Of a DNA stretch of 64,000 nt, positions 41,122 to 61,232 are shown piece by piece. Each line of letters starts with the position of its first letter. Position 1 is the stretch's first letter. The notes beneath the pieces are model-generated. The model was not told where the DNA came from. It saw only the letters and a list, made by a program, of their open reading frames with translations, and made no database searches. Both the position numbers and the translations under genes were made by a program. Origin of the DNA: Methanofastidiosum sp. (GTDB taxonomy: Archaea; Methanobacteriota_B; Thermococci; Methanofastidiosales; Methanofastidiosaceae); contig JAXGZJ010000001.1 of the NCBI GenBank assembly GCA_040771805.1, forward strand, positions 830,796 through 894,795, written 5' to 3'.

Positions 41122-41344
41122 GAACTATGCATTTATGTTGTAATTTATAAACTTTGTTAAAACGTATGCTTTATTGTATAATTTATATTGAAATGATGGT
41201 ATCTCTGAGATCCTTATACTAAGATCATAGTATTCTGCATTATTCTAGAATTAGAAGAATCATTAAAACTATTTTTTTTAAGTATTTTAAACAAAGTATG
41301 TCCAAACTCAGAAAAATAGATTGGGCATTAGTTTGTAAAAAGAG

Positions 41345-41419
41345 TGCCGCGGGCCGGATTTGAACCAGCGGAATACCAGATCTTCAGTCTGGCGCCCTCC
41401 CAGGCTAGGCGACCGCGGC
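41345..41419 (-). tRNA. tRNA-Phe (anticodon GAA); CCA not encoded
   Basis: Hand-folded cloverleaf: 7-bp acceptor stem GCCGCGG/CCGCGGC, D-stem GCCT/GGGC, anticodon stem CCAGA/TCTGG with loop CTGAAGA, T-stem GCTGG/CCGGC with loop TTCAAAT. Confidence 0.85.
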
Positions 41420-41607
41420 TTAGCTAATAAAAAGTGAATCTTTTGGATAATATATAAACTTTTCCCATAATATTATTTTGCAGTATAATCCTATCCAAGT
41501 GATGCTTATTCCTAATTTGCACTAAGCATTGTATGAGATTTAATCTTTATCGTCAAAGTATGCAGCAAGTTAAATATGCACATATTAGCTTTGATATTTC
41601 AAGCAAC

Positions 41608-42381
41608 TCAAGAAATAGATGGAACTATAACTTTCATGTCTAAAATTGATTCTATTGAACATATATCCCCATATAATAATTTTAGTATGTCGTTATCCAT
41701 TACTTCTTTTGCATTCCCATATCCAATCAGAGCTCCTTTGTCAATAAAAGCCACAGTATCACAAAACCATGATACATAGTTTGGATCATGTGTACAGACC
41801 ACTACAGTTTTACCTTTAGATGTCAATAGCTTTAGAGTTTTCCAGATATTTATTTGATTTCTAAAATCAAGGGCCGAAGTAGGCTCATCTAGCAACATTA
41901 TAGGGGTGTTTTGTGCAAACGATCTAGCTAAAAGAACCAACTGTCGCTGTCCTCCGCTTAGCTCAGTGTAATACCTATCGGCAATATTAGTTATGCCGAT
42001 AGTATTCATTGAGTATTCTGTAAAGTCTAAATCAATTTTTGAAGGATTAAAAAATCCTCCTAGATGTGGAGTTCGTCCCATCAAAACTATTTCTCTTACT
42101 TTAAATGGAAAAGGCGGCTTATGTTCCTGTGGCACATAAGAAATAATTTTAGCCAATTCTTTGGGATTAAAATTATTCAGTACTTCTCCATTTATCAGTA
42201 TATTTCCATCATTAGTTTTATTGAGGCCAGCTAAACATTTGAGCAAGGTAGACTTACCAGAACCGTTAGGACCAAATAGGGCGCATAATTTTCCCTTTTC
42301 TAAATTAAATGTGATATCCTTTAATACTTTCAAAGTTCCGTAATTAAAGGATAAATTATTTATTTTAATCATTTCTATCAC
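41608..42381 (-). CDS. ABC transporter ATP-binding protein (FepC/BtuD-type)
   Basis: Walker A GPNGSGKST, signature LSGGQRQ, Walker B MLLDEPTS. Confidence 0.85.
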   Translation of the reverse strand: MIEMIKINNLSFNYGTLKVLKDITFNLEKGKLCALFGPNGSGKSTLLKCLAGLNKTNDGNILINGEVLNNFNPKELAKIISYVPQEHKPPFPFKVREIVLMGRTPHLGGFFNPSKIDLDFTEYSMNTIGITNIADRYYTELSGGQRQLVLLARSFAQNTPIMLLDEPTSALDFRNQINIWKTLKLLTSKGKTVVVCTHDPNYVSWFCDTVAFIDKGALIGYGNAKEVMDNDILKLLYGDICSIESILDMKVIVPSIS

Positions 42382-43394
42382 CCAAAGTAAAGATTTCTAT
42401 TTTTTCTAACTAGAATAATCAAATATGGTGCGGCAATTACTGAAGTCAAAATACTGATAGGAATCTCACCAAAAGTTAAAGTTCTGGCTAAAGTATCACA
42501 TATCACTAAAAATAATCCTCCCATTATAGCGGAAGCAGGTATCAAATAACGATGATCTGGGCCGATTGTCATTCTTGCCATATGAGGAATAACTAGTCCC
42601 ACCCAAGCAATTATCCCAACAGTTCCAATAGCTATTGAAGTAATAAACGTAGACAGTACTATGCTTACAGCCTTTACCTTTTTGACGGATACTCCCAGAG
42701 ACTGAGCTTCCTGATCTCCCATTGTCAGCACATTTAACTTCCAAGCGAGACTCCACAATAGAATAAAGGATATAGTTATTAAAACAGAAAGTAGTCCGAC
42801 ATCACCCCACTTCGCAGTATAAAATCCACCCATCAACCAAAATACCAAATCACGTAACTCTCTAAAACCTGCGGTCATTTTTAAATATGAAAGGCCTGCA
42901 GAAAATATAGCACTCACAATTATTCCAGAGAGTATAAGATTAATCAACGGCGTTTCCTTTTTAACTGTGGCAAGAGAATATGCAAAAATCATCGCAATCA
43001 TCCCGAACACAAATGAAGTTAGTTGCATGGATAAAAAGCTTAAATGAAGAACAATTGATATTGCAGCCCCAAATGCAGCAGCGGAAGATACGCCCAAAAG
43101 GTATGGCTCCACAAGAGGATTTCTGAATACTCCTTGATAAGTTGTTCCTGCAGTTGCTAGTGCTACGCCAACAATGACGGATAAGAAGATTCTAGGAAGC
43201 CTTATCTGCCACACAACAATCTCATTGTCTAACGATGGAACTGTTCCTATTCCTATTTTATAGATAATTGCTTGAAATACATCTAATATGGGAATGTTAA
43301 AAGATCCTCGAGTTACGGCTACAACCATCCCTAATATAAGAAAAATTAAAGAGGTAATTAGGAATGTGCTTTTTGTCTTGTTATCTGAAATCAT
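42378..43394 (-). CDS. ABC transporter permease (FecCD/BtuC family)
   Basis: ~10-TM permease with FecCD-like glycine-rich helices; overlaps the ATPase gene start. Confidence 0.85.
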   Translation of the reverse strand: MISDNKTKSTFLITSLIFLILGMVVAVTRGSFNIPILDVFQAIIYKIGIGTVPSLDNEIVVWQIRLPRIFLSVIVGVALATAGTTYQGVFRNPLVEPYLLGVSSAAAFGAAISIVLHLSFLSMQLTSFVFGMIAMIFAYSLATVKKETPLINLILSGIIVSAIFSAGLSYLKMTAGFRELRDLVFWLMGGFYTAKWGDVGLLSVLITISFILLWSLAWKLNVLTMGDQEAQSLGVSVKKVKAVSIVLSTFITSIAIGTVGIIAWVGLVIPHMARMTIGPDHRYLIPASAIMGGLFLVICDTLARTLTFGEIPISILTSVIAAPYLIILVRKNRNLYFG

Positions 43395-43406
43395 TCAATA
43401 CCTCCT

Positions 43407-44252
43407 CTATTCCACATGCTGCCATTTAATTTGGACATAAACTGTATCATCATCCCATATGTATTTTCCATTTGATTTATTGAATTTTGTTTCTATATAC
43501 TCAGCAAGATATTTGTCATTTTTAGAATCAGATATTCTTAGACGGAGTTTTAAGTCAGATATTGCTTGATCAATGCTATCATATATTTTTGGAAATGATG
43601 TACCCTTTAGCACAGTAATATTTGGAGATCTTCCCATATCATAGAGAACATTATAAATAACATTACATTTAGGTGAGGGTGTATAGTTGCTGCCATATAT
43701 TTTTTGATACAAATCCATGTACAACTTCTCCCAAGAAGTGACCCCAGAAAACCAATACAGGATAACTTCTTTATTGGAGCAATCTTCCATTTTAAGTAAT
43801 GACTCCTTAATATTTTGCATAAGAAGAGAATAAGAAGCTATAACAATGTCATGTTTTTCTATTTTAGCTGTGTCAAAATTCTCCCATTTCGATTGAAAGA
43901 TTTCGATGTTTGTCAATCTTTCTTCTACGATATGTTTTTTTAGAAGATCAATCATTGATTGAGAGGGCTCAACAACAGTTACCTTCTTCACATATCTTGC
44001 TAAAGGAACTGCTAATACCCCCGGGCCAGCGCCTATATCAAGCACAGAGTAATTTTTATCAAAATTAAGTTCTTTTGCCCTTTTTTCCCCATCTTCCTTT
44101 ATTAATTTTGAGTTATCGTATGCTTCAGCACGTCTTTTATCATTATAATAATTCCTTTCATTTTCATTTTCTGGAAAAGAAAAATTGATTGTTTTATTCC
44201 AAATGGAATTCCAATCAATATAGTTTGACAAAGTTCCCCGATTAAAAGTCAT
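43407..44252 (-). CDS. Class I SAM-dependent methyltransferase embedded in the ABC importer operon
   Basis: SAM-binding motif I VLDIGAGPGVLAVPLA; sits between the binding-protein and permease genes. Confidence 0.65.
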   Translation of the reverse strand: MTFNRGTLSNYIDWNSIWNKTINFSFPENENERNYYNDKRRAEAYDNSKLIKEDGEKRAKELNFDKNYSVLDIGAGPGVLAVPLARYVKKVTVVEPSQSMIDLLKKHIVEERLTNIEIFQSKWENFDTAKIEKHDIVIASYSLLMQNIKESLLKMEDCSNKEVILYWFSGVTSWEKLYMDLYQKIYGSNYTPSPKCNVIYNVLYDMGRSPNITVLKGTSFPKIYDSIDQAISDLKLRLRISDSKNDKYLAEYIETKFNKSNGKYIWDDDTVYVQIKWQHVE

Positions 44253-45393
44253 TTGAGTCCATCCAGTCTAAAAGTTGAATTTCCTTTAGTCTCTGTGCTT
44301 GATTATCGTTTAATCCATAGAGCTCTTTGTGGTAGTCATTAACCCATTTGTTAACCTTTATATCACTGAATTTTTCAGGATATACAGTTTTTGCAGATAT
44401 AAGTAATATTGTAGGATAGTCAAGTTTAAAGTCTCCCCACCAAGTCAAAAGGCCAAAAGAACCTATTCTTCTATTTTTTACAGCGTTGACATTCTGCAAT
44501 GGTTTATATTTAGGGGCTGTACTTAATATGTTGATATCAGGCAATATAGAGTTGGTAGCAAGTATGATCACATCTGGATTCATGGTAATTATCTGCTCTG
44601 CTGACATTAATTGTGATTTGGATTCCCCATATACATTTTTTATGTTGCATATTTCTTCTGCAAACTTTGCGTCTCCGTAATTCTTACCCCAAACGGCACC
44701 TATACTATCATCTGTTTTCAGTCCAATATACATCACAGATGGCTTTTCAGAATCTTTGATGTCCTTAGTTCTATTATATACCATGTCCACATATTTCTTA
44801 GTAATGTCATGTATTTCTTTGGCACGTTTTTCCTTATTAAATACTTTTCCTAATATTATAATTCCTTCATATTGGGTATTCATTGTAGGATTGCTATACG
44901 CTCCGGGGGTATTAATTACTACAATGGGTATTTTAAGTTCATTTTCAATTCTATCCATTGCTTCTTTAGTTATTTCATTGTCTTTAATATATTCTGAGTT
45001 TGCCCAAAGGACTAAATCAGGTTTTACAGATATTAGAGTTTCAAAATTGAACCCCCCAAAGGTATAGCCTACATTTGGAAGCTCTATTATCTTAGGAAAT
45101 AGATATAAACTGTCCCTATCTTCTGCTTTTTCATTTTCTGAAGATAACATTCCACCACTTGCAACTATTTTATCTTGGACGCCCAAAGCAACTATGTTTT
45201 GTGTTATGAAGCCTTTATCAACAATAACAACTCTTTGAGGGTCAGAGGGAATCGTCACCGTCACTCCTCTCATATCAACTATTTCTTTCATGGCAATCTT
45301 CTGTGGTGAACTGGTATTTTGTACACATCCTAAAAAACTAAATGTTAAAAATAAAATCACCATAGTAATCAAAATATTATTTTTGTTTTTCAT
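44242..45393 (-). CDS. ABC transporter substrate-binding protein (cluster A-II/BtuF/FepB-like, probable lipoprotein)
   Basis: Signal peptide with lipobox-like FSFLGC; periplasmic binding protein 2-like. Confidence 0.75.
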   Translation of the reverse strand: MKNKNNILITMVILFLTFSFLGCVQNTSSPQKIAMKEIVDMRGVTVTIPSDPQRVVIVDKGFITQNIVALGVQDKIVASGGMLSSENEKAEDRDSLYLFPKIIELPNVGYTFGGFNFETLISVKPDLVLWANSEYIKDNEITKEAMDRIENELKIPIVVINTPGAYSNPTMNTQYEGIIILGKVFNKEKRAKEIHDITKKYVDMVYNRTKDIKDSEKPSVMYIGLKTDDSIGAVWGKNYGDAKFAEEICNIKNVYGESKSQLMSAEQIITMNPDVIILATNSILPDINILSTAPKYKPLQNVNAVKNRRIGSFGLLTWWGDFKLDYPTILLISAKTVYPEKFSDIKVNKWVNDYHKELYGLNDNQAQRLKEIQLLDWMDSNDF

Positions 45394-45520
45394 AGAATCT
45401 CCTTAATTTTTAGTGTTATTATAGTAGCACTAATTTAGAAAACGTGTTATTAATTATTTATAAAGTTTATGGTTTAATATATAGTTAAAGGACTATTTAC
45501 TCATCGAAATATTTATATAC

Positions 45521-45541
45521 TTGGATGGTGACGCCATCCAT
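45521..45541. promoter_or_regulatory. Palindromic candidate operator, copy 1 (TTGGATGGTGACGCCATCCAT)
   Basis: 19 of 21 positions identical to the perfect palindrome at 54857..54877; preceded by TATA-like ATTTATATAC and followed directly by the ATG at 45542. Confidence 0.45.
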
Positions 45542-45685
45542 ATGAACAATAAATGTATTATCTGTAAGTGTGAATTAAATAAGAGGACTTATATTATCTG
45601 CGAAGATTGTTTTGAAAAATGCATCTCTCAATTGGAATTAACTGATTTTCACAAAAATAGAGAGGCTATCTTTATTATGGATTAG
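45542..45685 (+). CDS. Small zinc-ribbon protein, 47 aa (not in ORF track)
   Basis: ATG...TAG ORF encoding MNNKCIICKCELNKRTYIICEDCFEKC... with CxxCKC-x9-CxxC; promoter-like TATA and palindrome just upstream. Confidence 0.35.
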   Translation: MNNKCIICKCELNKRTYIICEDCFEKCISQLELTDFHKNREAIFIMD

Positions 45686-45771
45686 GATGATAAAAGTAAT
45701 ATAAACAATGAAAAAGTTAATAAATAAACTATAATTCTTACCACAATGCAAAACACAAGAGGTAATTACCA

Positions 45772-45906
45772 TTGAAGAATGAAATCACGATAAATTTTCC
45801 AAAGGACATCAGAGAGTACTGCCCAAAATGTAAGTGTTACCTATATCCTGTAAAAGATCATATTTGCTACTTCTGCAAAAGTAAAACTATTCCCCATAAA
45901 GAATAA
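45772..45906 (+). CDS. Small zinc-ribbon protein paralog, ~44 aa (TTG start; not in ORF track)
   Basis: ORF encoding (M)KNEITINFPKDIREYCPKCKCYLYPVKDHICYFCKSK... with the same CxxCKC-x9-CxxC spacing; AGAGGT SD-like element 8 nt upstream. Confidence 0.3.
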   Translation: MKNEITINFPKDIREYCPKCKCYLYPVKDHICYFCKSKTIPHKE

Positions 45907-45912
45907 AAATAA

Positions 45913-46473
45913 TTAAGAATTTTTAAAAGAATTCTCTTCAAATTCCTTATGAATTTGCTGCATCCATTCAGGTATAGATATTTTGTCCTCAGGGTAAAAG
46001 TTTCTAACATACGGTTTGATATCAACTACAGGACTACCATCGACCGCATCCAGCCCCGTAACCTCTAAAACATTCCCTCTTATACCATGCAAACGGACAA
46101 CAGTCATAAGTATAGGATTTGGTCTTGCAGGGCTACATGTGGCAAATATACCTACCTTTGAAAAACATTCTCTTCCCATAGGATGTACTTTTGTCAAAGA
46201 TCGACTTTGCTCTGGAACTTTATGGGCCCAGTATAAAATTATAAGATGGGAATATTTTTCAACCCCTTCAAGGATATCTATGATATCATTATCAATAATA
46301 ATTTCTGATATTTCCTCATTGATTTGACGAATTTGTTTCATATTGGCTTTGTTCTGTTCCTTCATCTTTATTCCCTCATTTCCGGCAACAAGGGAGGGTT
46401 CATTATTGTTATTTCTTACAATACCAATCGGCCTTACTATCAAATTTCCTGCATTTTTATTATCTTTAATCAT
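45913..46473 (-). CDS. TsaA/YaeB (TrmO-like) family protein
   Basis: VRPIGIVRN N-terminus and RPNPILMTVV...VTGLDAVDGSPVVDIKPY core motifs. Confidence 0.6.
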   Translation of the reverse strand: MIKDNKNAGNLIVRPIGIVRNNNNEPSLVAGNEGIKMKEQNKANMKQIRQINEEISEIIIDNDIIDILEGVEKYSHLIILYWAHKVPEQSRSLTKVHPMGRECFSKVGIFATCSPARPNPILMTVVRLHGIRGNVLEVTGLDAVDGSPVVDIKPYVRNFYPEDKISIPEWMQQIHKEFEENSFKNS

Positions 46474-46513
46474 GTTTCAACCTTCTAACTCTATAGATAG
46501 ATTTTTATCAAAG

Positions 46514-47611
46514 TTATCTTATTCTTATTCCGTCCCCAGTTAATTTATTATATCTGCTCTTTGAACAAGGATAGCAATAATTTCCTCCGTTGCTTTTAGA
46601 TATCCTTGTAGCCATTACGTTTTCCTTACAACAATCACATAAAATGCTATCATATATTGGGGCATATTCTGGGATATCTGCCTTCACTTTTTTTATTGAA
46701 AAAAGGCTATCAAAGTCCATTTTAAGCATGTTAAACGAGACCTCTTTTCCATATTGTTTAAATAAAGAATAATCTTCTTCGTTTCCAGCCCTATCTCTTA
46801 CTACTTTATTAAATAATTCAAAATACTCAGGAAAGTTTTTTTCAAGACCATTTCTGTAATCAGGATTAACAGAAACTCTTATCCCATTGCCATCTCTTCT
46901 AGATAGTGTTACGGCATTTTTTCCAAAATCCCGATAAATAAGGGCATTATTTCCAAATGTACATCCAGTAACATATTGGACGCCATCTGACATGCAATTA
47001 TTTGCTTCAACAATAGCGATTACTTCTTCCATCCCATCTGAAATTTCTTTGATTTCATTCATCAGATAAGCGCTTGCCCTAACTCCAAGGGATAATCCCG
47101 GGCAATAGTGGCCATGAATTGTTCCTGCCGTAATGAGTAGTTTTTCTAAATCATTCTCAGCAATGTACCTAGTTATTTCTGATCTTGGATTGTTTTTTAG
47201 GTAGCTTAGATTTTCAGCTTCTTGACCCTTTTCATCAAGAAAAGCAGAGTACGGTTTTATATCAATAACAGGTGTTCCATCGATTGCGTCAAGTCCCTTT
47301 ACTAGAAGCTCGTTACCTTTTCTTTCCAATAGCTCTACCGTAGTTAGGCCTATATTTGTCGGCCTTCGTGGGCTTCTAGAAGCAAAAACACCTTTTACTT
47401 CGCCCCCATACCTAGGGCCAATAAGTTCAAAATCTTTAGAAAGATGAAAAACAAACATTACCTGGAGATATCTGCTCTCCTCTATCTTATATAGTCCATC
47501 TTCAAAATCTTTGTCTACTATGATTGTACTCTCTGTCTTTCTTAATATATTTGGGTCTACTTGCTCCCTAAAATTATTTTTTACTGTTCCTATCTTTTTA
47601 ATATGCTCCAT
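46514..47611 (-). CDS. Fusion protein: N-terminal TsaA/YaeB-like domain, FmdE-like domain, C-terminal zinc ribbon
   Basis: RRPTNIGLTTV...KGLDAIDGTPVIDIKPY (TsaA-like); HGHYCPGLSLGVRA (FmdE-like); CDCC...CYPC C-terminal cluster; start uncertain (track start 47680). Confidence 0.6.
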   Translation of the reverse strand: MEHIKKIGTVKNNFREQVDPNILRKTESTIIVDKDFEDGLYKIEESRYLQVMFVFHLSKDFELIGPRYGGEVKGVFASRSPRRPTNIGLTTVELLERKGNELLVKGLDAIDGTPVIDIKPYSAFLDEKGQEAENLSYLKNNPRSEITRYIAENDLEKLLITAGTIHGHYCPGLSLGVRASAYLMNEIKEISDGMEEVIAIVEANNCMSDGVQYVTGCTFGNNALIYRDFGKNAVTLSRRDGNGIRVSVNPDYRNGLEKNFPEYFELFNKVVRDRAGNEEDYSLFKQYGKEVSFNMLKMDFDSLFSIKKVKADIPEYAPIYDSILCDCCKENVMATRISKSNGGNYCYPCSKSRYNKLTGDGIRIR

Positions 47612-48374
47612 TATTTTTCCTCCCCACTGGAATAACAAACGGGTAGCCATCGTGCTCCTTAATATAGACATCCACACCATATACTTCTTTAATTAATTTT
47701 GGAGTAATTATATCGTGGCCTCCAACTGAATCAATCATTCCCCCTTTTAAAAAGATGAATTTGTCTGAAAATCTTAGGGCGGAATTAATATCATGCATTG
47801 TCATTATAACTGATACATCATGTCCATCCACAATTTCTGATAAGAGGTACAGTATTTCCTGCTGATTTTTAAGATCTAGACTTGATGTAGGTTCATCCAA
47901 TAATAGTATTTTTGGCTCTTGAACTATTGCTCTGGCTATTCCGACTTTTTGTAATTCTCCACCACTTAACTCATCTAAATACCTTAAAGAGAGATCTTCC
48001 ATGTTTAATTTTTTCATGGCAGAGTTAACTAATGAAATATCCTTGTTAGATACATCCCACTTTATATGGGGTTTCCTACCAAGTAAGATGGCATCAAATA
48101 CAGTTATCCTTACAGTTTCGTTTCTTTGTGGAACATAACCTAACTTCTTTGCTATTTCTATTCTTTTAATATTCATAATATCTTGATTCTCTACCAGTAT
48201 ACTTCCACCTTGTGGCCTTAGAATTCTATTTATGCATTTGAGAAGTGTAGTTTTGCCCACGCCATTTGGGCCTAATATACTTAAAATTTCATTCGACTCT
48301 AAATTAAAGTCTATTTGATTGAATATTTCTTTATTTTTATAACTAAATTTTAAATTAGATATTTCAAGCATCAT
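47598..48374 (-). CDS. ABC transporter ATP-binding protein (FepC/BtuD-type), second system
   Basis: Walker A GPNGVGKTT, signature LSGGELQ, Walker B LLLDEPTS. Confidence 0.85.
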   Translation of the reverse strand: MMLEISNLKFSYKNKEIFNQIDFNLESNEILSILGPNGVGKTTLLKCINRILRPQGGSILVENQDIMNIKRIEIAKKLGYVPQRNETVRITVFDAILLGRKPHIKWDVSNKDISLVNSAMKKLNMEDLSLRYLDELSGGELQKVGIARAIVQEPKILLLDEPTSSLDLKNQQEILYLLSEIVDGHDVSVIMTMHDINSALRFSDKFIFLKGGMIDSVGGHDIITPKLIKEVYGVDVYIKEHDGYPFVIPVGRKNNGAY

Positions 48375-49441
48375 CTTCTTCCTCCTTTTATCAATAGGAA
48401 GATAAAAATTGGTGCACCCATAAATGCTGTTAAAATTGCTACAGGTAAAACATGTGGGGCAACTATCAATCTGGCTGCAGTATCAGAAAGTGACAATAGT
48501 ATACCTCCCATTAGGATAGACCCTGGTATTAGAAAACGATTGTCGTCACCGATTAAGATTCTTACTATATGCGGACATACAAGCCCTACAAATCCAATAA
48601 CACCAAGGAAAGCTACAATAACTGCAGTAACAAGAGAGGAAACAATCATCCCTATTAGGCGAATTCTTGTGACATCTACGCCTAAACCTAAAGCAGTGTC
48701 ATCACCTGCGTCAATTGCATTATAGTTCCATCTATTTATGAAAAAGTATATTGCGGCCAATATTACTACAATTGATATTATGCTTAATTCTCGCCAATCG
48801 GCTCTTGCAACATCACCAAAAGACCAAAAAACAACAGCTGCTAACTGCACATCATCGGCAAAGAATTGAAGAAACATTGTTCCTGCTGTAAATAGGGACG
48901 ATAAAGCTACTCCTGCTAAGATCATTACTTCAGGTGAAGCTTTTTTCATATGGGCTATTCCCAATATGAACGCAGTTGCAAGTAGACAAAAGATAAATGC
49001 AACTATAGTTGTGGTATATGGATTATTGATTACTATGGCATCCATAGCTCTACTACGCATAGTTCCTGTACCCAAAATCATCACAGAAAATGCTGCACCA
49101 AATGCCCCGGCGTTAGAAATTCCTAGGGTAAATGGAGATGCCAATGGATTCCTTAAAATCGATTGCATTGCAACACCCGCAACACCGAGTCCAATCCCAG
49201 CAGCTACTCCCGTTAAAGCCTGAGGTAAACGAATATTCCATATAATTGTATGCCAAGTACTAGACTGGGCATTACCAATTAAAACTTTAAAAACCTCAGG
49301 TAATGGTATGTTTACTGCCCCCACAGAGACAGAAAATGCAATTGAAAATATTAAGAATAATAAACTACCAATTAAAAAAATCATTTTTTTCCATACATAA
49401 TTAAGATATCCTTCTGGCAATTCCGATTCATTTAAGTGCAT
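48371..49441 (-). CDS. ABC transporter permease (FecCD/BtuC family), second system
   Basis: Polytopic FecCD-like permease; overlaps the ATPase gene start. Confidence 0.85.
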   Translation of the reverse strand: MHLNESELPEGYLNYVWKKMIFLIGSLLFLIFSIAFSVSVGAVNIPLPEVFKVLIGNAQSSTWHTIIWNIRLPQALTGVAAGIGLGVAGVAMQSILRNPLASPFTLGISNAGAFGAAFSVMILGTGTMRSRAMDAIVINNPYTTTIVAFIFCLLATAFILGIAHMKKASPEVMILAGVALSSLFTAGTMFLQFFADDVQLAAVVFWSFGDVARADWRELSIISIVVILAAIYFFINRWNYNAIDAGDDTALGLGVDVTRIRLIGMIVSSLVTAVIVAFLGVIGFVGLVCPHIVRILIGDDNRFLIPGSILMGGILLSLSDTAARLIVAPHVLPVAILTAFMGAPIFIFLLIKGGRR

Positions 49442-49470
49442 CTTATTCCTCCCTTTGTAAAAAAATAAAA

Positions 49471-49491
49471 ATGTCTAGGTTTACTAGACAT
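49471..49491 (-). terminator. Intra-operon hairpin followed by a U-tract, between binding-protein and permease genes
   Basis: ATGTCTAG-GTTTA-CTAGACAT (8-bp stem) followed on the coding strand by TTTTATTTTTTT, then the GGAGG RBS of the permease. Confidence 0.35.
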
Positions 49492-50591
49492 CATATATCT
49501 AATTTTTTAAAGCCTATATTATTGAACTCAGAGTTTAATTCACTAAACACAGCTTTACCAAATAAAAATGTATAAATTTCGTCTGCTTTTTTAACTGGAT
49601 CTATATCTGAGAATTTTTCTGGATAAATAACTTTTCCGACGAAGTAAGCATCAGCTAAAACTGATCCTTGATTTGCATTATACCAATTATAGGGTATCAC
49701 TGCGTAGACTTCTCCAGATTTTACGGCACTTAATTTTTTATATGCTGAGTCCTTTTTCAATTCATCAATTGCTGTATCTGTTTCTAATTGTATTGTAGCA
49801 ATATCAACAAATAGTATGTCCGGATCCCACTCTACTATCTTTTCTTTAGCAACTTCTGTTCCTTGGCTCCCCAATGCTGAAGCAACGTTATTTGCATTTA
49901 CAAAGATAAATGGGGGGTAACCTGGCTCTGTTGAATGTAAACCGTGTGGGCCTGCCCTCGCCACTCCACCAATGTATACTGATTTTCTCTGGGATTCAGG
50001 TACATCCTTTGTCCTGTTGTTTAAATCTTCAATCCCCTTATCAAAGAAGGATATTACTTCTTCTACTCTAGCTTCTTTGTTCATTACTTTTGCCATAATT
50101 CGCCAGGTTTTATACATTTCACTCCTATTTTTACCAAGATCTCCATAGTTTAATGCAACTACTGGAATTCCAGTTTTAGTTTGAAGTTTATCGGCATCTT
50201 CAATTGTTGTTTGAACTTTGAATATTATTTGGGGATTCAAAGCAATTATTTTTTCGGGATCGTCTTTTCCACGAAACTCTCCAAATATTGGGTAGTCTCT
50301 AAATTGTCTATTTGCAATTGCATATGGTCTTGCATCAAACTTAGAAGTTCCTTTTTCAATGTCATCTACACCGACTATTTTATCGTGAGCTTGTAGATAA
50401 GTTAGGTACCTTAGGCACCCTGAACCTGAACAAATTACTTTAGTTGGATTTACAGGTACAGTTACTTCTCGTCCGAGCGAATCGGTTATTTTCATTGTTT
50501 TTTGTGAAGTATCCGTTGTGTTGCTAGTGCATCCTGCTGACAAAAACATTGCAGCTACTAACACTGCAATAATAAAAATATTTGCACACAT
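49491..50591 (-). CDS. ABC transporter substrate-binding protein (BtuF/FepB-like lipoprotein), second system
   Basis: Start placed at internal Met (MCANIFIIAVLVAAMFLSAGC, lipobox-like); track ORF extends to 50729. Confidence 0.7.
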   Translation of the reverse strand: MCANIFIIAVLVAAMFLSAGCTSNTTDTSQKTMKITDSLGREVTVPVNPTKVICSGSGCLRYLTYLQAHDKIVGVDDIEKGTSKFDARPYAIANRQFRDYPIFGEFRGKDDPEKIIALNPQIIFKVQTTIEDADKLQTKTGIPVVALNYGDLGKNRSEMYKTWRIMAKVMNKEARVEEVISFFDKGIEDLNNRTKDVPESQRKSVYIGGVARAGPHGLHSTEPGYPPFIFVNANNVASALGSQGTEVAKEKIVEWDPDILFVDIATIQLETDTAIDELKKDSAYKKLSAVKSGEVYAVIPYNWYNANQGSVLADAYFVGKVIYPEKFSDIDPVKKADEIYTFLFGKAVFSELNSEFNNIGFKKLDI

Positions 50592-50939
50592 TTTTTTATT
50601 TTTGATAAAAACACCTCCGCCAAATAGAATAAGTATTCTATTTATAAGTATTACGTTTTTTTGATACGTGCTACTATTTTTATAAAATCTATCTTTAATA
50701 ACACTTGATAAATTTTTCAATTGCAGCATTGATTCTGTTTCTAGCTTTACTTGATATACTAATTGTCAAAATTCTTTGTAAAATCTAAGTTATTTTCCTT
50801 CTCTATTTCTGAGTAAGGAGGATATAATTAATCAATGCAGTTATAGTCTTTTTCTATAAATATATGCTTTGTTGAATAATTCCAAACAAACGACAATTAT
50901 CTCTAACTTGCCCTTTCTTTACCTTTAGCTTTACACTAG

Positions 50940-51720
50940 CTGTTGCAGTTGGTCATCAGCAGAAATTCATCATCACTTCCTTTTGTGCCATGTCAAATCG
51001 TTTGGCGGTAGTTCCTTCGCCAAATGAGCGCTTGACCGCAGAGAAATATGATTCTATGCGCCACCGCTTGTCATATTCGTATTTCTCTTTCCATGAAATC
51101 TAGCCAATCTTTTTCACTTCCCACATTGACTTAGCACGCAGAGGCGACCTAAGGGGCGTGTTGAGACATTTTTTTGTATCTTTATTATTGAACTGCATTC
51201 TTTTTAGCGGCAATATCAACCATGTTTCTTGTGTCGTAGGCTCCGTCTGCTATAAGAACTTTGAAAGCTACCCCATCAGCTAAAAAATGCTCATTTAGCT
51301 ATCGTGGGCATCTCTATCTGTAACAACTATACCGATTAGTTTTCCTGTCTTAGCGTCGATGGCAGCATGCGCCTTTAGGTAGTTCTTATTTTTCCCGTAG
51401 AGGTAGTTTATCCAGCTCCCGGCATCAGTCATCTTAAATCCGGTGCTGTCGCTTACCACAGTAAGCTCTGAAACATCTTCTATCACCTCAAGCTCAAATT
51501 TCATCTGAAGTATTCTCCGTCAGATGGTGGCGTAGTCTGCCGACTTGATCTTAGGTGAATACTTGGATATAGCTTGAAGAAAGCCTTTGGTCTACCTACA
51601 CCTTAGCCCGCAGACTGTCCTTACAGTTGTTACAAATCTGATGAAAGATTCCTGGTAGGGGATATGATCTTCTGACCTTATCATTGTTCATTAGAGCTAG
51701 CTCTTTGTTCAATATATCGT
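50940..51720 (-). mobile_element. Remnant of an IS4/IS5-family insertion sequence; ends not defined
   Basis: GC-rich patch in an AT-rich background; transposase motifs found in three different frames. Confidence 0.5.
50956..51692 (-). pseudogene. IS5-like DDE transposase, disrupted by frameshifts and stops
   Basis: Reverse-strand translations give AIDAKTGKLIGIVVTDRDAHD, KVLIADGAYDT and YDKRWRIESYFSAVKRSFGE in different frames. Confidence 0.55.
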
Positions 51721-51744
51721 TTAAAAAATCAAAAGATTGATAAA

Positions 51745-53061
51745 CTACCACAATGACTTGCTTAGTATTTCTCTACTGTTAATAACTCTGCATTCTATAA
51801 CAAGGGAAGTTTCATTGACAAATGATTTTATTCGTTTTTCAGTATGTCCTACCATCCCTCCGCTTGTAAGGATAAGGCATTGTTTTCCAGACAATGAAGT
51901 CAAAATAGATTTATCAATAACGTTGGAAGTTACATCAAGGCTAATATTGTCCTTGCTACAAATAGATTTGCTTTTAGAGCCCATTGCTCCCACATATTGG
52001 ATCTTATATTCACCGATAATATTCTGGACTTCTTGAAAGTCATAAAAATCAGTATTATAGATATATATTCTTCCAATATTCTGATGATTGTGGAACTCAA
52101 TAATTGCATTGTTATCTTGGGACTTATAAAAAACAGTTCCCTTCTTAAAGTAGTGATCATTTGGAACATCGTTAAACTCAACTAGATCCCCAACTTTTTT
52201 GTCTGAAGAAATCTTCCTCCACTTTAAATTAGAAGGTTTTAAGAAACCGACTAATTCCAAAAGATTTTTCGGAGTTTTGCCGTCTGTGGCTAAATTTCTA
52301 TTTACAAGTTCATTATATATCTGAATTATAAGGGGAGTTTTAAGATGTGTTTTTTTAATTAGTTCCTTTTCTTTAAACAGCGTATCTGGAGTTCCCTGGC
52401 CAACTATCTTTCCGTCAGCCATTAAATAAACGTAATCAGACCATTGATAAGCCAGCTCGATATCATGGGTAGAAATTATTATTGTTTTGCCGTAGCTATT
52501 GAGCTCATTTAGTATGTCCATAACTTCATTGGCGCCTCTAGGGTCAAGATTAGACAGTGGCTCGTCCAAAACGATGATGTCAGGTTCCATTACAAGTATG
52601 CCTGCTATTGCAGCTCTTTTCTTTTGGCCACCACTTAAATGATGAGGGGATTTTTCTTTTATATGGAGGAGATCAACATAATCCAAAGCCAATTCAGTGT
52701 ACTTTTTAACCTTATCTTCATCCCATCCAAGATTCATAGGGCCAAACGCCACGTCCTGATAGAGAGTTGGTGCAAAAAGTTGATCATCCGGATTTTGGAA
52801 TACCATCCCAACTCTTTTTCTGATTTCAACTAGATTTTTACTGCTATATTTCATTTTTTCTCCATTAAATATAATCTCTCCTTCAGTTGGGGCATGAATC
52901 CCATTAAACATTAAAAAAAGAGTGGATTTTCCAGCTCCGTTTGGGCCTACAAAGGATATTTTTTTACCTGCCTCTATTCTGATATTTACCCCCTTGAGGG
53001 CCTCAAACCCATCTCCATAAGTATATCTGACGTTTTTAGCTACAATGATAGGATTAGTCAT
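51745..53061 (-). CDS. cbiO: Cobalt ECF transporter ATPase CbiO with a ~150-aa C-terminal extension
   Basis: Walker A GPNGAGKST, signature LSGGQKKR, Walker B IVLDEPLS; 438 aa, longer than a typical CbiO/EcfA. Confidence 0.85.
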   Translation of the reverse strand: MTNPIIVAKNVRYTYGDGFEALKGVNIRIEAGKKISFVGPNGAGKSTLFLMFNGIHAPTEGEIIFNGEKMKYSSKNLVEIRKRVGMVFQNPDDQLFAPTLYQDVAFGPMNLGWDEDKVKKYTELALDYVDLLHIKEKSPHHLSGGQKKRAAIAGILVMEPDIIVLDEPLSNLDPRGANEVMDILNELNSYGKTIIISTHDIELAYQWSDYVYLMADGKIVGQGTPDTLFKEKELIKKTHLKTPLIIQIYNELVNRNLATDGKTPKNLLELVGFLKPSNLKWRKISSDKKVGDLVEFNDVPNDHYFKKGTVFYKSQDNNAIIEFHNHQNIGRIYIYNTDFYDFQEVQNIIGEYKIQYVGAMGSKSKSICSKDNISLDVTSNVIDKSILTSLSGKQCLILTSGGMVGHTEKRIKSFVNETSLVIECRVINSREILSKSLW

Positions 53062-53849
53062 AAAATCACTCCAATTCCCACATTTCTCGTAGTATATGTT
53101 AAGATTATTATAAATAAAAGATACAATATTGACACCACTGCTTCTCTCAAAGATATAGGTTTGGTGTCTTTAAAAATAGATATTTTTCCATCATAGCATC
53201 TTGAATTCATGGCAATGTAAAGCTTTTCCCCTTGATCCCAAGTCCGTATAAATAATGTGCTTGCAAGTATGGCAAGAGAATGCATCCAATTCTTAAAAGA
53301 GATGTATCCCATTCTCATATTTTGAGCATCTTCCATTTTCATTGCCAAATCCAAGAATACAAATATATACCTATATATCAGCATGGATAATTCAATAAAT
53401 ATTTCAGGTAATTTTAACTCTTTTAAAACATAAAATAGATGTGTTACAGGTGTAGACAGGGATAAGAAGTAAAGGCAACTCAGTCCAGAAATTGAGCGTG
53501 AAAAAACAAGGACCGCCATATTCAGCCCCCCCATAGTTATTGATAATTTATAATTAAAGATATTAAATGAAATAATATCGGGGCCTGTTCCAAAAAAGAA
53601 TAATATAATTAAAATTCCAAATATCAAAAAAGTACCTGGTATTAATAATAACTTAAGATAAATTTTGACAGGTACTTTATTGAGATATATAATCGCTAAA
53701 CCAAAAAAAAGTGAAATAATAATAGGAGTAACTGGTGATGTGGACATTACCCCTATTATCATAGAAGACAAGGCCAGCAATACTTTAAGCTCAGCATTTT
53801 TGTATCTAAGTGGGCTAATTATGGCATAGTCTTCTAATATCGTATGCAC
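53058..53849 (-). CDS. cbiQ: Cobalt ECF transporter T component CbiQ
   Basis: Polytopic membrane protein between cbiN and cbiO; overlaps cbiO start. Confidence 0.8.
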   Translation of the reverse strand: MHTILEDYAIISPLRYKNAELKVLLALSSMIIGVMSTSPVTPIIISLFFGLAIIYLNKVPVKIYLKLLLIPGTFLIFGILIILFFFGTGPDIISFNIFNYKLSITMGGLNMAVLVFSRSISGLSCLYFLSLSTPVTHLFYVLKELKLPEIFIELSMLIYRYIFVFLDLAMKMEDAQNMRMGYISFKNWMHSLAILASTLFIRTWDQGEKLYIAMNSRCYDGKISIFKDTKPISLREAVVSILYLLFIIILTYTTRNVGIGVIL

Positions 53850-53873
53850 AGATTGTACACCTTAATGCCATTT

Positions 53874-54143
53874 TTATTGTTTGCCTTTGTAAAATCCTAG
53901 GAAATACCCTATTATTAGTCCACCTATGGCTGCCTGGAGACTAAAGAATAAACTTTCAATCTCTCCGCTTGGCGGTTCCCATAAAGGTTGTACTATAGGT
54001 TCAAATTCTGGATTTAACTCAGCAATTACATCCCCAGCCTCATCGTCAGCTCCGCCCCATTCAAAACTGCCGGTTGAAGATACAACTACAAATGCAACTG
54101 CAAATATTAGGATTGAGATAATTGCTATTATTTCTCCTTTCAT
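53874..54143 (-). CDS. cbiN: Cobalt transport protein CbiN
   Basis: 89 aa, two TM helices flanking an acidic loop. Confidence 0.8.
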   Translation of the reverse strand: MKGEIIAIISILIFAVAFVVVSSTGSFEWGGADDEAGDVIAELNPEFEPIVQPLWEPPSGEIESLFFSLQAAIGGLIIGYFLGFYKGKQ

Positions 54144-54841
54144 GCTTTTGCACCTCTGCCTAATACTTCTTTTACTGTTTCTTTTGGCATTACCTTCATC
54201 TTTACGAGTATATCTGATCTAACCTGTAAAACATACTTTAAAAGTAGTGCAGTGAGAACACCTTCCATTAAAGCAAGTGGTACTTGTGTAACGGCAAATA
54301 CTGTGGCGAAAGAAGCAAATGAAGTCATGAATCCACCTTCTGCAGCAGGAAATGCCAAGGCGAGTTGAATTGAGGTCATTACATACGTAAACCAGTCAGC
54401 AAATGTTGCAGCAAAAAAAGCGGCTATGTAAAAGTTGATTTTGACCTTCATTAGTGCTTTATAGATAATATATCCAAATATAGGGCCAACTATACCCATC
54501 GAAAATGTGTTTGCCCCGAGTGTTGTAAATCCTCCATGAGCCAAAAATAATGCTTGGTATATCAAAGATATGAAAGACAAGACCGCAGTTACGAATGGAC
54601 CAAAAATAATTGCTCCTAGTGCTGTTCCTGTAGGGTGTGAACAACTGCCAGTGACCGAGGGTAGTTTCAGCGAAGATAAGACAAATATGTAAGCACCTGC
54701 TACAGCCAATAGTGGCAATATTTCTCTGTTTTGCTTGACTAACTTATTGATTTGATAGATTCCATATATTATAAATGGAACTGCCAAAACAAACCAAATA
54801 ATCCACCAAGGAGATGGTAGAAATCCTTCCATTATATGCAT
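54140..54841 (-). CDS. cbiM: Cobalt ECF transporter S component CbiM
   Basis: N-terminal MHIMEGFLP typical of CbiM; polytopic; overlaps cbiN start. Confidence 0.85.
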   Translation of the reverse strand: MHIMEGFLPSPWWIIWFVLAVPFIIYGIYQINKLVKQNREILPLLAVAGAYIFVLSSLKLPSVTGSCSHPTGTALGAIIFGPFVTAVLSFISLIYQALFLAHGGFTTLGANTFSMGIVGPIFGYIIYKALMKVKINFYIAAFFAATFADWFTYVMTSIQLALAFPAAEGGFMTSFASFATVFAVTQVPLALMEGVLTALLLKYVLQVRSDILVKMKVMPKETVKEVLGRGAKA

Positions 54842-54856
54842 TTATTTTCCTCCTTT

Positions 54857-54877
54857 ATGGATGGTGACACCATCCAT
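54857..54877. promoter_or_regulatory. Perfect 21-bp palindrome (10-bp arms, 1-nt centre) over the predicted cbiMNQO transcription start: candidate operator
   Basis: ATGGATGGTG-A-CACCATCCAT lies 16-36 nt upstream of the cbiM ATG, between an AT-rich TATA-like element and the GGAGG RBS. Confidence 0.5.
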
Positions 54878-54934
54878 TAACAAATAACAACATTTTTTAT
54901 TTATAAATATATTGGTTATTGGTAAGAATTCATT

Positions 54935-55684
54935 TTATAAACAAAGATTATTTAATCTGTCTATTATCTTTGATTTTTCTGAATATATGGCACCGTAATA
55001 TATCTTGGGTCTTTCAATCAATATCACTTTAATGCCATCTTCAATTGCAGCTTCAATTTTGTTTCTAGTCCCGCCCTCTTCTCCGCCATCTTTAGTTACC
55101 ACAAATTCAATGTCAAATTGCCTGTAAATTTCTCTGTTAAACTCTTTAAAAAAAGGTCCTTGAATAGCAATTATATTTTTAGGGGAAAATCCAAGTTTTT
55201 CACATTTTTCCAAAACGACTGACGAAGGTAAAACCCTTACAAAAAGTCTATTTATACCAAGTTTAGAAAATACTTCAAGATTATTGCTTCCAATTGTAAG
55301 CATTATATTGCCAGTCGTATCCTTTAACACCTCTGCAGCCTCATTATAACTTTTTACTCTCACTACTCCACTAATCTCAGTTTCTAATCTCTCATATCTA
55401 AGATAAGGGATGTTTTTATCCTTGGCCACCTTAATTGCAGTTCTTGATATATTCTCTGCATATGGATGGCTCGCATCAACAATGCATTTGATATTATTGT
55501 GCTCAATTACACCAATCATATCATTATAGTCCTTTTTTCCATAAATAACAGTTAAATTTGGGTGTTCTCCCAATAGATCTTTACCATACTTTGTAGCGGT
55601 ACTGGCAAGTACCTTAAAATTGCTGTTTAGGATATCTTTAGCTAAATCCCTTCCATCCTTTGTCCCGCCTATTAAAAGAATCAT
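54935..55684 (-). CDS. cbiJ: Cobalt-precorrin-6A reductase
   Basis: N-terminal ILLIGGTKDGRDLA typical of CbiJ/CobK. Confidence 0.7.
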   Translation of the reverse strand: MILLIGGTKDGRDLAKDILNSNFKVLASTATKYGKDLLGEHPNLTVIYGKKDYNDMIGVIEHNNIKCIVDASHPYAENISRTAIKVAKDKNIPYLRYERLETEISGVVRVKSYNEAAEVLKDTTGNIMLTIGSNNLEVFSKLGINRLFVRVLPSSVVLEKCEKLGFSPKNIIAIQGPFFKEFNREIYRQFDIEFVVTKDGGEEGGTRNKIEAAIEDGIKVILIERPKIYYGAIYSEKSKIIDRLNNLCL

Positions 55685-56415
55685 ATGTTATATCCTCTTG
55701 GGGTTATCATGAAATTATCCTTTACATATGTTCTGGAGTTTCCTATAATTATCAGTGTGCTCATGTCAATTTCATGTTCAAGCATTTCATTGATGTCTGT
55801 GATAATAACTTTTTGACCATCTCTCATTGCATTTTTAACTATCCCCACGGGAGTATTAAGATCCTTATAGGACAATAGAATTTCTCTCGTCTTGAATATC
55901 TGCTCTCTTCTTCCTTTGCTTTTTGGATTATAGATGCAGATGACAAAATCACCTTTTCCAGCACAATGGATTCGATTTTCTATTATCTCCCATGGAATTA
56001 AAAGGTCGCTGAGGCTAATCACAACATGATCTTCCGTAATTGGTGAACCCAATAACGATGCTGCAGCGAGATAAGATGTAACTCCCGGAACTACCTCAAC
56101 ATAAATCTCTTCTTTTGTTTTTGTAATAAGCTCAAGTAGTATTCCAGCCATCCCATAAATGCCGGGGTCACCACTACTTATTAAAGAAACTACTTTTCCC
56201 TCTTTTGCATAATCAATACACTGATTACATCTTTCTACTTCCTTAGTCATCCCAGAAGAAATATATTCTTTTTCTGGGAAAAAAGGTTTGATTAATTTTA
56301 TATAACTCGAATAACCAACTATAATATCAGAATCTTTTAAGGAATTCTTGGCTCTTGTGGTGAGGTAGTCATAATCACCTGGCCCTATCCCAACAACAAA
56401 TATTTTACCTTTCAT
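55681..56415 (-). CDS. cbiH: Cobalt-precorrin-3B C17-methyltransferase
   Basis: Tetrapyrrole methylase fold, VVGIGPGD and ADIIVGYSSYI motifs. Confidence 0.75.
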   Translation of the reverse strand: MKGKIFVVGIGPGDYDYLTTRAKNSLKDSDIIVGYSSYIKLIKPFFPEKEYISSGMTKEVERCNQCIDYAKEGKVVSLISSGDPGIYGMAGILLELITKTKEEIYVEVVPGVTSYLAAASLLGSPITEDHVVISLSDLLIPWEIIENRIHCAGKGDFVICIYNPKSKGRREQIFKTREILLSYKDLNTPVGIVKNAMRDGQKVIITDINEMLEHEIDMSTLIIIGNSRTYVKDNFMITPRGYNI

Positions 56416-58896: not shown

Positions 58897-58897
58897 T

Positions 58898-61219: not shown

Positions 61220-61232
61220 AGGAATACCTGGA

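Follow-up and report, generated by a model that had tools for sequence, protein, structure and literature searches.

Two candidate NikR-regulated nickel-chelate importers, one a widespread uncharacterized cassette, next to the cobalt genes of a Methanofastidiosum genome

What is the cargo of two related importers that are encoded side by side, next to the genes for cobalt uptake and cobalamin synthesis? This question is raised by a 64,000-nt stretch of DNA from the archaeon Methanofastidiosum sp. (assembly GCA_040771805.1, contig JAXGZJ010000001.1, positions 830,796 to 894,795), hereafter the window. Its positions 41608-54841 hold two ATP-binding cassette (ABC) importer operons, here called A and B, a degenerate insertion sequence (IS) and the cobalt transporter genes cbiMNQO. 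A first-pass annotation, made from the sequence, had described the importers as BtuFCD-like and had proposed a corrinoid and a siderophore or metal chelate as their ligands. All of the genes that it named are present, and all are on the minus strand. Of its proposed ligands, metal chelates are probable, while a corrinoid and a siderophore were unsupported, as the comparative context is that of nickel. We hold with moderate confidence that the operons encode two NikR-regulated nickel-chelate importers, one of which is a widespread and uncharacterized cassette. The 13-kb stretch is thereby predicted to join two unrelated trace-metal systems, one that provides cobalt to corrin synthesis (the cbi genes and cbiMNQO) and a nickel regulon, in a methanogen that depends on F430 and NiFe hydrogenase. 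The metal specificity is inferred from genomic context only.

Read in the direction of transcription, the cbi genes are followed by cbiMNQO, the degenerate IS, operon B and, after ~520 bp, operon A. Operon B encodes a substrate-binding protein (SBP), a FecCD permease, an ATPase, a fusion protein with TrmO_N and FmdE domains, and a small TrmO_N protein. Operon A encodes an SBP, a class-I S-adenosylmethionine (SAM) methyltransferase, a FecCD permease and an ATPase. The set of components expected of a type II ABC importer (FecCD permease, Peripla_BP_2 SBP and ABC ATPase) is complete in both operons. Pairwise identities between A and B are 27% for the SBPs, 35% for the permeases and 34% for the ATPases, indicating old, divergent paralogues and no recent duplication, so that the earlier description of two complete, divergent importers of one family holds. 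Each importer was also said to have its own accessory enzyme; both do have accessory genes, although operon B has two of these and not one.

Operon B and its recurring neighbors

The five genes of operon B, in order of transcription, are as follows.

49491-50606, minus strand: SBP (SBP_B), a TM0189-like lipoprotein (PF01497, E 3e-23; PDB 2ETV over the full length, E 1e-79; lipobox LSAGC)
48371-49441, minus strand: FecCD permease (PF01032, E 2.5e-87)
47598-48374, minus strand: ATPase (PF00005, E 1e-33)
46514-47611, minus strand: 365-aa fusion of TrmO_N, FmdE and a C-terminal Zn-ribbon (PF01980, PF02663)
45913-46473, minus strand: 186-aa TrmO_N-only protein, the last gene of the operon (PF01980, E 2e-29)

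The fusion protein has more than 1379 homologues, and identity between its archaeal and bacterial members is ~50%. A scan of one genome per species produced 587 matching stretches, which is a lower bound, and 80 species loci were examined. In 53-57 of these 80 loci, SBP, permease, ATPase and fusion genes shared one strand and kept this order, with orthologues of the operon B permease (41-62% identity) directly before the ATPase and fusion genes in 57. Genomes with the cassette belong to the Bacteroidota, Spirochaetota, Bacillota, Thermotogota, Bipolaricaulota and Desulfobacterota, as well as to the Thermoplasmatota and Methanofastidiales, and include a Methanomicrobia metagenome-assembled genome (MAG) and one Natronomonas MAG. 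The small TrmO_N gene also follows the fusion gene in two other loci, L026 and L180, the latter a 19,023-nt sequence from a different Methanofastidiosum species. The solved protein closest to SBP_B is TM0189 of Thermotoga maritima (2ETV). Its name, “putative iron(III) ABC transporter binding protein”, is an annotation only, and the cassette context suggests nickel instead; three uncultured Thermotogae (L047, L054 and L074) have the full cassette with the fusion.

When the neighboring open reading frames (ORFs) of the 80 loci were clustered unsupervised, without prior labels, a 134-aa NikR (NikR_C, E 5e-28) was found at 26 loci and NiFe hydrogenase subunits at nine. Other clusters comprised TonB-dependent receptors (16 loci, mostly in Bacteroidota-type MAGs), a His-rich DsbD_2-like membrane protein (permease) encoded immediately behind the fusion (eight loci), and LarB and LarC (Ni_insertion, E 2e-96). 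In the Methanomicrobia MAG (L018), the genes cfbA, cfbE, cfbD, cfbB, cfbC and sirC, that is, the F430 pathway, begin 43 bp after the fusion gene, with cfbA and cfbD scoring above cut-off; nickel importer and F430 pathway may there form one transcription unit. The recurrent partners of the cassette are nickel-specific.

Several further features of these loci were noted. At L018 11126-18110, a complete cfbA-E/sirC/hemA set comes directly after the cassette. Downstream of the fusion in six loci of the Spirochaetales-type clade (L025, L053, L072, L078, L017 and L065), Fur-like, NifX-like and Mrp/ApbC genes recur. The same set includes genes for a radical-SAM-like protein, for an MBL-fold protein and for a P-loop ATPase containing ferredoxin inserts; its labels were read from the sequences, with a Pfam check for the MBL-fold protein only. 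In operon B of the window, a 9-bp stem-loop with a T-run (49470-49492, minus strand) lies exactly between the SBP stop and the permease start, and could through partial termination produce a higher ratio of SBP to membrane components.

Methanogens need much nickel for F430 and NiFe hydrogenases, and how they take up the metal with high affinity is only partly understood. In a 2009 survey by Zhang et al., the archaeal transporters were only Nik/CbiMNQO, NikABCDE and NiCoT (PMC2667541). We found no earlier description in the literature of the conserved four-gene cassette and its link to NikR and nickel, which appear to be new. Nor did we find a functional study of the fusion, of FmdE with nickel or NikR, or of TM0189/2ETV, although an earlier mention of NikR-linked FecCD-type transporters is possible.

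NikR-type operators and the likely cargo

A 27-28-bp palindrome with the half-site GTRTTACGAW was observed upstream of the cassettes. We built a position matrix from 20 cassette sites, with the 64-kb window excluded from training. In 1.23 Mb of loci, this matrix scored 49 sites at 17 bits or more, compared to one in shuffled DNA. For 31 of 53 cassettes, a site was identified no more than 350 bp ahead of the leading gene, be it nikR, receptor or SBP, and in 16 of these 31 no nikR adjoins the cassette. Nearby nikR, an upstream site or both were seen for 39 of the 53, and most of the others have weaker or more distant sites or are missing their upstream sequence. The motif matches the NikR signal that Rodionov et al. 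described for the delta-proteobacteria, a 27-28-bp inverted repeat GTGTTAC-[N13/14]-GTAACAC that also occurs with reversed half-sites (PMC545781), and the reversed form is represented among the cassette sites as well.

In the window, only two matches exceeded 13 bits, the next best scoring 12.0. One lies upstream of each importer operon, beside a putative TATA-like element that was read from the sequence.

50648-50674, minus strand, GTAGCACGTATCAAAAAAACGTAATAC: candidate NikR box of operon B, the best matrix match (20.5 bits)
50675-50687, minus strand, TTTTATAAAAATA: putative TATA-like box of operon B, abutting the operator
45424-45450, minus strand, ATAACACGTTTTCTAAATTAGTGCTAC: candidate NikR box of operon A, the second-best matrix match (15.6 bits)
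45455-45464, minus strand, TTTATAAATA: putative TATA-like box of operon A, 4 nt upstream of the operator

By chance, a match such as the operon B box is expected 0.01 times per 64 kb (300 shuffles of the window), and matches of 15.5 bits or more, the range of the operon A box, arose in shuffled sequence 0.25 times per 64 kb. The operon A box is 30 bp upstream of the ATG of its SBP gene (SBP_A). The operon B box precedes the likely SBP_B start by ~40-57 bp and lies inside the N-terminal extension of a long ORF, for which the called start at 50729 is set too far out; the probable true start is the ATC at 50606 or the ATG at 50591. In both importer promoters, TATA box, operator, Shine-Dalgarno sequence and start codon follow one another in that order, and this layout of TATA box and operator is that expected of an archaeal repressor that would block initiation. 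Sites were also found in relatives. L180 has a 26.2-bit site just upstream of its SBP gene, the sole match in its 19 kb, and two more distant Methanofastidiales (L031 and L068) have 16.4-bit sites at the same place. A scan for the E. coli-type NikR box, GTATGA-N16-TCATAC, returned weak matches only, inside genes.

With regard to the start of SBP_B, the non-canonical ATC (in 50604-50612), the probable start, follows a GGAGGTG Shine-Dalgarno sequence by 6 nt and would give a signal peptide M-KNKK-MCANIF...LSAGC. At the corresponding position in L180 (~4930) there is an ATT, and gene callers picked three different starts.

These findings bear on the corrinoid assignment, in which one or both importers would be BtuFCD-type transporters that salvage corrinoids for the adjacent cobalamin pathway. 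The importers do adjoin cbi and cbiMNQO, and the window importers and BtuFCD have the same architecture and permease family. None of the six transporter proteins, however, reached the NCBIfam cut-off of any BtuC, BtuD, Fhu, Fep, Fec or heme model. The best NCBIfam match of the operon A permease is archaeal BtuC, yet at 267 bits compared to a cut-off of 461; the operon B permease scored 188 against 334, and the ATPases 122 and 125 against 281. While one NCBI record names an SBP_A orthologue “corrinoid ABC transporter substrate-binding protein”, BtuF chains were absent from the PDB sequence matches of both SBPs (E < 0.01), and BtuFCD has no SAM-enzyme partners. The operon A methyltransferase weakly matches a model for corrinoid-protein-associated methyltransferases (35 bits, cut-off 180).

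Bacterial B12 transporters are normally controlled by riboswitches. At Rfam gathering thresholds, the whole window contained tRNA-Phe only and no riboswitch, and a permissive search of 41000-55500 likewise found none, which has little weight in an archaeon. The absence of a cobalamin riboswitch from eight bacterial loci with the operon B cassette, and from four loci with an A-type set (L176-L179, three bacterial and one archaeal; E < 0.1), is more telling in light of that normal mode of control. As the neighbors and operators are instead those of nickel, and the importers do not stay close to cbi even among species of the genus, we consider corrinoid import improbable.

Iron is a somewhat stronger contender, but still an unlikely one. 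The two operons would then be importers of siderophore-type iron chelates, and the palindromes and nikR neighbors would be explained by another metal sensor or by cross-talk. Ferric-siderophore binders (such as FhuD, CeuE, YiuA and FatB) are indeed the nearest named structures and NCBIfam models, and invariant Arg and Tyr residues of SBP_B resemble the basic and Tyr-containing pockets of siderophore SBPs. Yet every match to a siderophore model fell far below its equivalog cut-off: the SBPs reached at best 52-66 bits against 374, and the permeases 165-183 bits against 396-428 and above. The first-pass annotation had named grouping with iron-siderophore systems as the outcome that would speak against it, and the importers join no characterized iron family. 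Consensus scans for Fur, Zur and PerR upstream of the A-type cassettes gave nothing useful; the Fur scan, which covered the upstream regions of L176-L179 and operon A of the window and not operon B or the Spirochaetales-clade loci, returned one weak match. A sigma-70 promoter scan, a model that is inapplicable to an archaeon, gave as many matches as shuffled sequence. Fur-family and Fe-S-related genes do occur near the cassette in the Spirochaetales clade that is closest to SBP_B, whereas the operator is present in eight of nine loci of that Spirochaetales/Desulfobacterales clade. Across the cassettes, the nikR genes and NikR boxes, the Lar genes, the NiFe hydrogenases and the F430 operon are indicative of nickel and not of a siderophore.

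One further metal came up through the structural matches of SBP_B, which include HI_1472 (3PSA, E 5e-11), a protein that we take to be MolA, the molybdate/tungstate binder of MolBC. Operon B could on this basis be a molybdate/tungstate importer like MolBC-A, with the FmdE domain as a factor related to these metals, especially as FmdE was first described in the operons of molybdenum formylmethanofuran dehydrogenase (PMC2954224). TM0189 is far closer to SBP_B, though, and chelate binders also outscore MolA; the neighborhoods examined had no fmd/fwd, mod or ModE elements and were dominated by nickel markers, so that we give this explanation very little credence.

A nickel precedent exists in a distant bacterium. 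FecDE/CeuE of Helicobacter pylori is a type II importer of nickel as an organic chelate, and nickel uptake in H. pylori is controlled by NikR. The window importers are of the same type (FecCD/Peripla_BP_2), and CeuE (4INO/4INP/4LS3) is among the PDB matches of SBP_A, although the similarity is low (E ~1e-5) and limited to the C-terminal part. The H. pylori system differs in having no TrmO_N/FmdE or methyltransferase partner, and the operator seen here is of the GTGTTAC-N13-GTAACAC type and not the H. pylori type. The operator consensus and the closeness to nickel enzymes are shared with NikMNQO/CbiMNQO and NikABCDE of the NikR regulon (PMC545781, PMC2667541), but those are ECF or Opp-type transporters, whereas the window importers are type II with a class III SBP.

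Operon A and the accessory proteins

The four genes of operon A are listed in order of transcription.

44242-45393, minus strand: SBP (SBP_A), a Peripla_BP_2 lipoprotein (PF01497, E 2.5e-17; signal and lipobox MKNKNN...FLGC)
43407-44252, minus strand: class-I SAM methyltransferase (Methyltransf_25/31 domains, motif VLDIGAGPG)
42378-43394, minus strand: FecCD permease (PF01032, E 2e-84; best NCBIfam match archaeal BtuC, 267 bits, cut-off 461)
41608-42381, minus strand: ATPase (ABC_tran, PF00005, E 6e-31)

Operon A, like operon B, is a conserved module. The order SBP-methyltransferase-permease-ATPase recurs in Oscillospiraceae, Treponemataceae and Methanospirillum; the SBP_A family is commonest in Clostridia and Treponema, and the closest homologues of SBP_A (50-62% identity) are from Clostridia, Treponema and Methanospirillum. 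Orthologues of the permease (51-56% identity) occur in methanogen loci and adjoin the same methyltransferase family there. The best NCBIfam matches of the ATPase were FecE, corrinoid and heme ATPases, all below cut-off. The methyltransferase belongs to a family of ~200 proteins, the named members of which are all from methanogens, and a profile search against the PDB matched generic class-I methyltransferases only. In a metagenome sample, it adjoined FecCD or SBP genes in 24 of 84 loci, seven of which had an A-type set with a permease 53-56% and an SBP 31-33% identical to those of operon A. A 16.4-bit NikR-type site was found upstream of a methyltransferase-led cluster in a Methanolobus genome. 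The nickel link of operon A is weaker than that of operon B, and is drawn mainly from the candidate operator.

In two loci (L105 and L107), this methyltransferase is encoded behind a B-type transporter (54-60% identical), at the position usually taken by the fusion gene, and in seven further loci TrmO_N-only or FmdE-only genes occur near a methyltransferase of the operon A type. Class-I methyltransferase, TrmO_N and FmdE are thus a group of modules that recurs in the company of the importers. An A-type transporter in Clostridium lundense (L176) has no methyltransferase. The 330-bp leader upstream of its SBP_A homologue contains two ~30-nt elements (…CCACGAAGGTTAYTTCYTGTAAA…, at 5760-5900) that matched no Rfam family and could be a new regulatory element.

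The fusion gene begins at 47611 (MEHIKK), exactly as in public assemblies (the ORF start at 47680 is too far upstream), and overlaps the ATPase gene by 14 nt, suggesting that the two proteins are synthesized in a coupled manner. An AF2 model of the fusion (pLDDT 87) has a TrmO-type beta-barrel, an FmdE core and a treble-clef zinc finger; its Foldseek matches were 2GVI for the FmdE part (TM 0.78) and 2NV4 for the TrmO part (TM 0.75), and the fold search returned only these two expected domain families. The TrmO_N domain matches PF01980 with E 1e-28 and is 41% identical to the small TrmO_N protein. Invariant in the fusion family are H166, G167, H168, C170 and C206, which are the FmdE HGHxC motif and a distal Cys, and the four treble-clef residues C325, C328, C346 and C349. 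Of the former, H166, H168, C170 and C206 correspond to the His2Cys2 ligands of FmdE that held mixed Zn/Ni in crystal structure 2GLZ, at the base of a groove able to take a large ligand (Axelrod et al.; PMC2954224). Axelrod et al. also reported in 2010 that most FmdE homologues adjoin metal transporters and that FmdE also occurs fused to UPF0066 (PMC2954224).

Could the accessory genes be unrelated to transport, with the TrmO-like proteins being tRNA m6t6A methyltransferases, the class-I enzyme a housekeeping methylase, and their linkage a matter of chance? Public annotations do name TrmO, and both TrmO-like proteins score above the TIGR00104 cut-off (103-109 bits, cut-off 93). Kimura et al. 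identified Gln22, Arg82, Asp111 and Lys122 of AF0241 as the SAM contacts of TrmO (PMC4132733). The fusion retains three of these as R79, D108 and K119, but its PRQ motif is lost, and the small paralogue has a Cys at the position of the Arg that contacts the SAM carboxylate and no PRQ motif either. The C-terminal DPRxxY domain, which E. coli TrmO needs for tRNA methylation (PMC4132733), is absent from both proteins, the fusion running into its FmdE domain instead, and m6t6A has so far been found in no archaeal tRNA analyzed (PMC4132733). On these grounds, “TrmO” and “formylmethanofuran dehydrogenase subunit E”, as the proteins are called in public records, are almost certainly misnomers; no fmd/fwd genes are present in the window or in the conserved neighborhood. 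The fusion keeps the folds of FmdE (PF02663) and TrmO/YaeB (PF01980), the His2Cys2 site and three of four SAM contacts, but differs from these families in its neighbors and in having neither the tRNA domain nor the PRQ motif. As gene order is also conserved across phyla, the fusion gene overlaps that of the ATPase, and a different SAM enzyme fills the same position in L105 and L107, a chance linkage is highly improbable.

Cnt/staphylopine is an Opp-type metal-chelate importer that is encoded with SAM-using enzymes, three biosynthetic enzymes and an exporter. It resembles the importers described here in combining a metal-chelate ABC importer with SAM-using enzymes, although the latter have one accessory protein only and lack both an exporter and a gene like nicotianamine synthase. 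Synthesis of a metallophore by the accessory enzymes was ranked low, as a minor possibility, because there is no exporter and only a single enzyme.

Several observations weigh against the nickel reading. The fusion lacks the SAM-contacting Gln of the PRQ motif, which is Ile in the window protein and variable across the family, and the role that we propose for it (nickel capture with SAM-dependent modification or sensing of the ligand) is speculative. In the Spirochaetales/Desulfobacterales clade nearest to SBP_B, nikR is adjacent in just one of nine loci, despite the operator in eight, and the adjoining genes are Fur-like, NifX-like and Mrp-type (Fe-S-related). The operon A site scores 15.6 bits only, and there is no such operator in the bacterial A-type cassettes L176-L178 or in Methanospirillum (L179). 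No nikR was found in the 64-kb window or its flanks by tBLASTn with 26 NikR sequences, the extent of that search, and the best match in the window (E 1e-4) lies inside an OB-fold/DHH protein. NikR-family regulators and importers of this kind could also answer to another metal. Lastly, the SBP_B family has no invariant His or Cys beyond the lipobox Cys, and His is typical of direct nickel binding. The residues that are invariant are Asp, Arg, Tyr, Glu and Trp (R42, R62, Y66, Y91 and R176, among others), and these, together with the lack of His and Cys and with the TonB receptors of diderm homologues, point to an anionic organic nickel complex as the ligand and not the free ion.

We hypothesize that the nickel system would work as follows. 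When nickel is sufficient, Ni-NikR would bind the 27-bp palindrome observed by each TATA box and block initiation. When nickel is scarce, the lipid-anchored SBPs would catch an anionic nickel chelate, a proposal based on the invariant Arg, Tyr and Glu, the missing His and Cys and the TonB receptors, and, as is general for the family, the complex would be brought in by a FecCD permease dimer and an ATPase dimer. More speculatively, the operon B fusion, translationally coupled to the ATPase, would take the complex into its FmdE groove, where the nickel would be bound by the His2Cys2 site. Modification or sensing of the freed ligand might then fall to the SAM-binding beta-barrel, possibly together with the small TrmO_N paralogue, and nickel might pass onward to CfbA, hydrogenase maturation or Lar enzymes. 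The class-I SAM methyltransferase of operon A may have the equivalent accessory role.

The fusion, or the class-I methyltransferase that replaces it, would in that case represent a new step in metal acquisition: a cytoplasmic SAM enzyme, tied to a type II importer, that strips nickel from its chelate and then passes the metal to CfbA, hydrogenase maturation or Lar. One conceivable route for the stripping is alkylation of a ligand atom, with simultaneous capture of the metal at the His2Cys2 site. We put this forward tentatively, as an idea with a low chance of being correct. If true, it would give a function to FmdE-like proteins and to many archaeal “TrmO” paralogues. The cassette is widespread in anaerobe phyla and routinely misannotated as iron transport, formylmethanofuran dehydrogenase subunit E and tRNA methyltransferase. 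Should it be a NikR-regulon importer, these annotations would be corrected, the FmdE-like and archaeal TrmO-like families would acquire a testable hypothesis, and targets would be gained for trace-metal dosing of anaerobic digesters, the habitat of this organism.

Cobalt genes, IS remnant and the remainder of the window

The IS remnant, cbiMNQO and the cbi cluster lie where the first-pass annotation had placed them.

54935-63996, minus strand: anaerobic cobalamin genes cbiJ, H, G, F, L, T, E, D, C and amidase/synthase genes (cbiA/P-like), identified with NCBIfam and Pfam
54140-54841, minus strand: cbiM (NCBIfam CbiM, 296 bits, cut-off 184)
53874-54143, minus strand: cbiN (NF002780, 108 bits, cut-off 84)
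53058-53849, minus strand: cbiQ (NCBIfam CbiQ, 181 bits, cut-off 112)
51745-53061, minus strand: cbiO (TIGR01166, 247 bits, cut-off 212)
~50880-51700 (boundaries approximate), minus strand: degenerate IS of ~0.83 kb (DDE_Tnp_1 fragments in a six-frame translation)

The transporter is a true member of the cobalt branch of NikMNQO/CbiMNQO, and cbiJ lies 94 bp upstream of cbiM. CbiO is 438 aa long compared to the usual ~280; the extra C-terminal ~170 aa (51745-52260) matched no Pfam family or PDB entry, and this greater length is conserved across the species cluster.

The IS remnant consists of DDE_Tnp_1 pieces in two frames, with frameshifts and stops and no intact transposase ORF, and is flanked by 12-nt repeats at 50867 and 51703; public assemblies call a 69-aa DDE_Tnp_1 fragment within it. 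The operon B promoter, ~190 bp from this scar, is intact. Among the 80 cassette loci, a CbiO-like match was nearby in only two and cbiM in none. In L180, all five genes of operon B are flanked by an unrelated ECF transporter on one side and a form III RuBisCO gene on the other, with neither operon A nor cbi, which suggests that the cassette moves as a unit within the genus. Since adjacency is not conserved and the scar lies exactly at the joint, the juxtaposition of importers and cobalt genes looks like a rearrangement and not a functional unit. Co-localization had earlier been taken to suggest coordinated control with cobalt uptake. This suggestion did not hold up, as the two importers have a NikR-type operator in common and no such site occurs upstream of cbiM or inside the cbi genes within the window. 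In a close relative (L010, ENA contig ERZ2648049, ~1x coverage), cbiE is immediately followed by the small TrmO_N gene and the operon A genes are fragmented, which is either a deletion from cbiT to the fusion or an assembly artefact.

The DNA around the region is low in GC (~34%), and from ~17 kb onward the window has genes on the minus strand only. Exact sequence matches assign the region to MAGs of Candidatus Methanofastidiosum/Methanofastidiosa that were recovered from anaerobic digesters. Within the gap between operons B and A, on the opposite strand, is a 47-codon ORF (45542-45685, plus strand) that public assemblies do not call as a gene; it has two CxxC-like pairs (MNNKCIICKCELNKRTYIICEDCFEKC...) and resembles a small zinc ribbon. 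Past operon A are tRNA-Phe, thrC and the genes for the F420-reducing NiFe hydrogenase, frhA-frhD-frhGB. Downstream of frhA and frhD, FrhG (the small subunit of the F420 hydrogenase, Oxidored_q6) and FrhB are fused in a 516-aa protein (36378-37928, minus strand). The remainder of the window contains housekeeping genes, including those for A-type ATP synthase, XPB helicase and Trm1, and a DUF1638 protein (7914-8834, minus strand) and a DUF6282 protein (5415-6323, minus strand) are encoded amid pyrimidine-biosynthesis genes.

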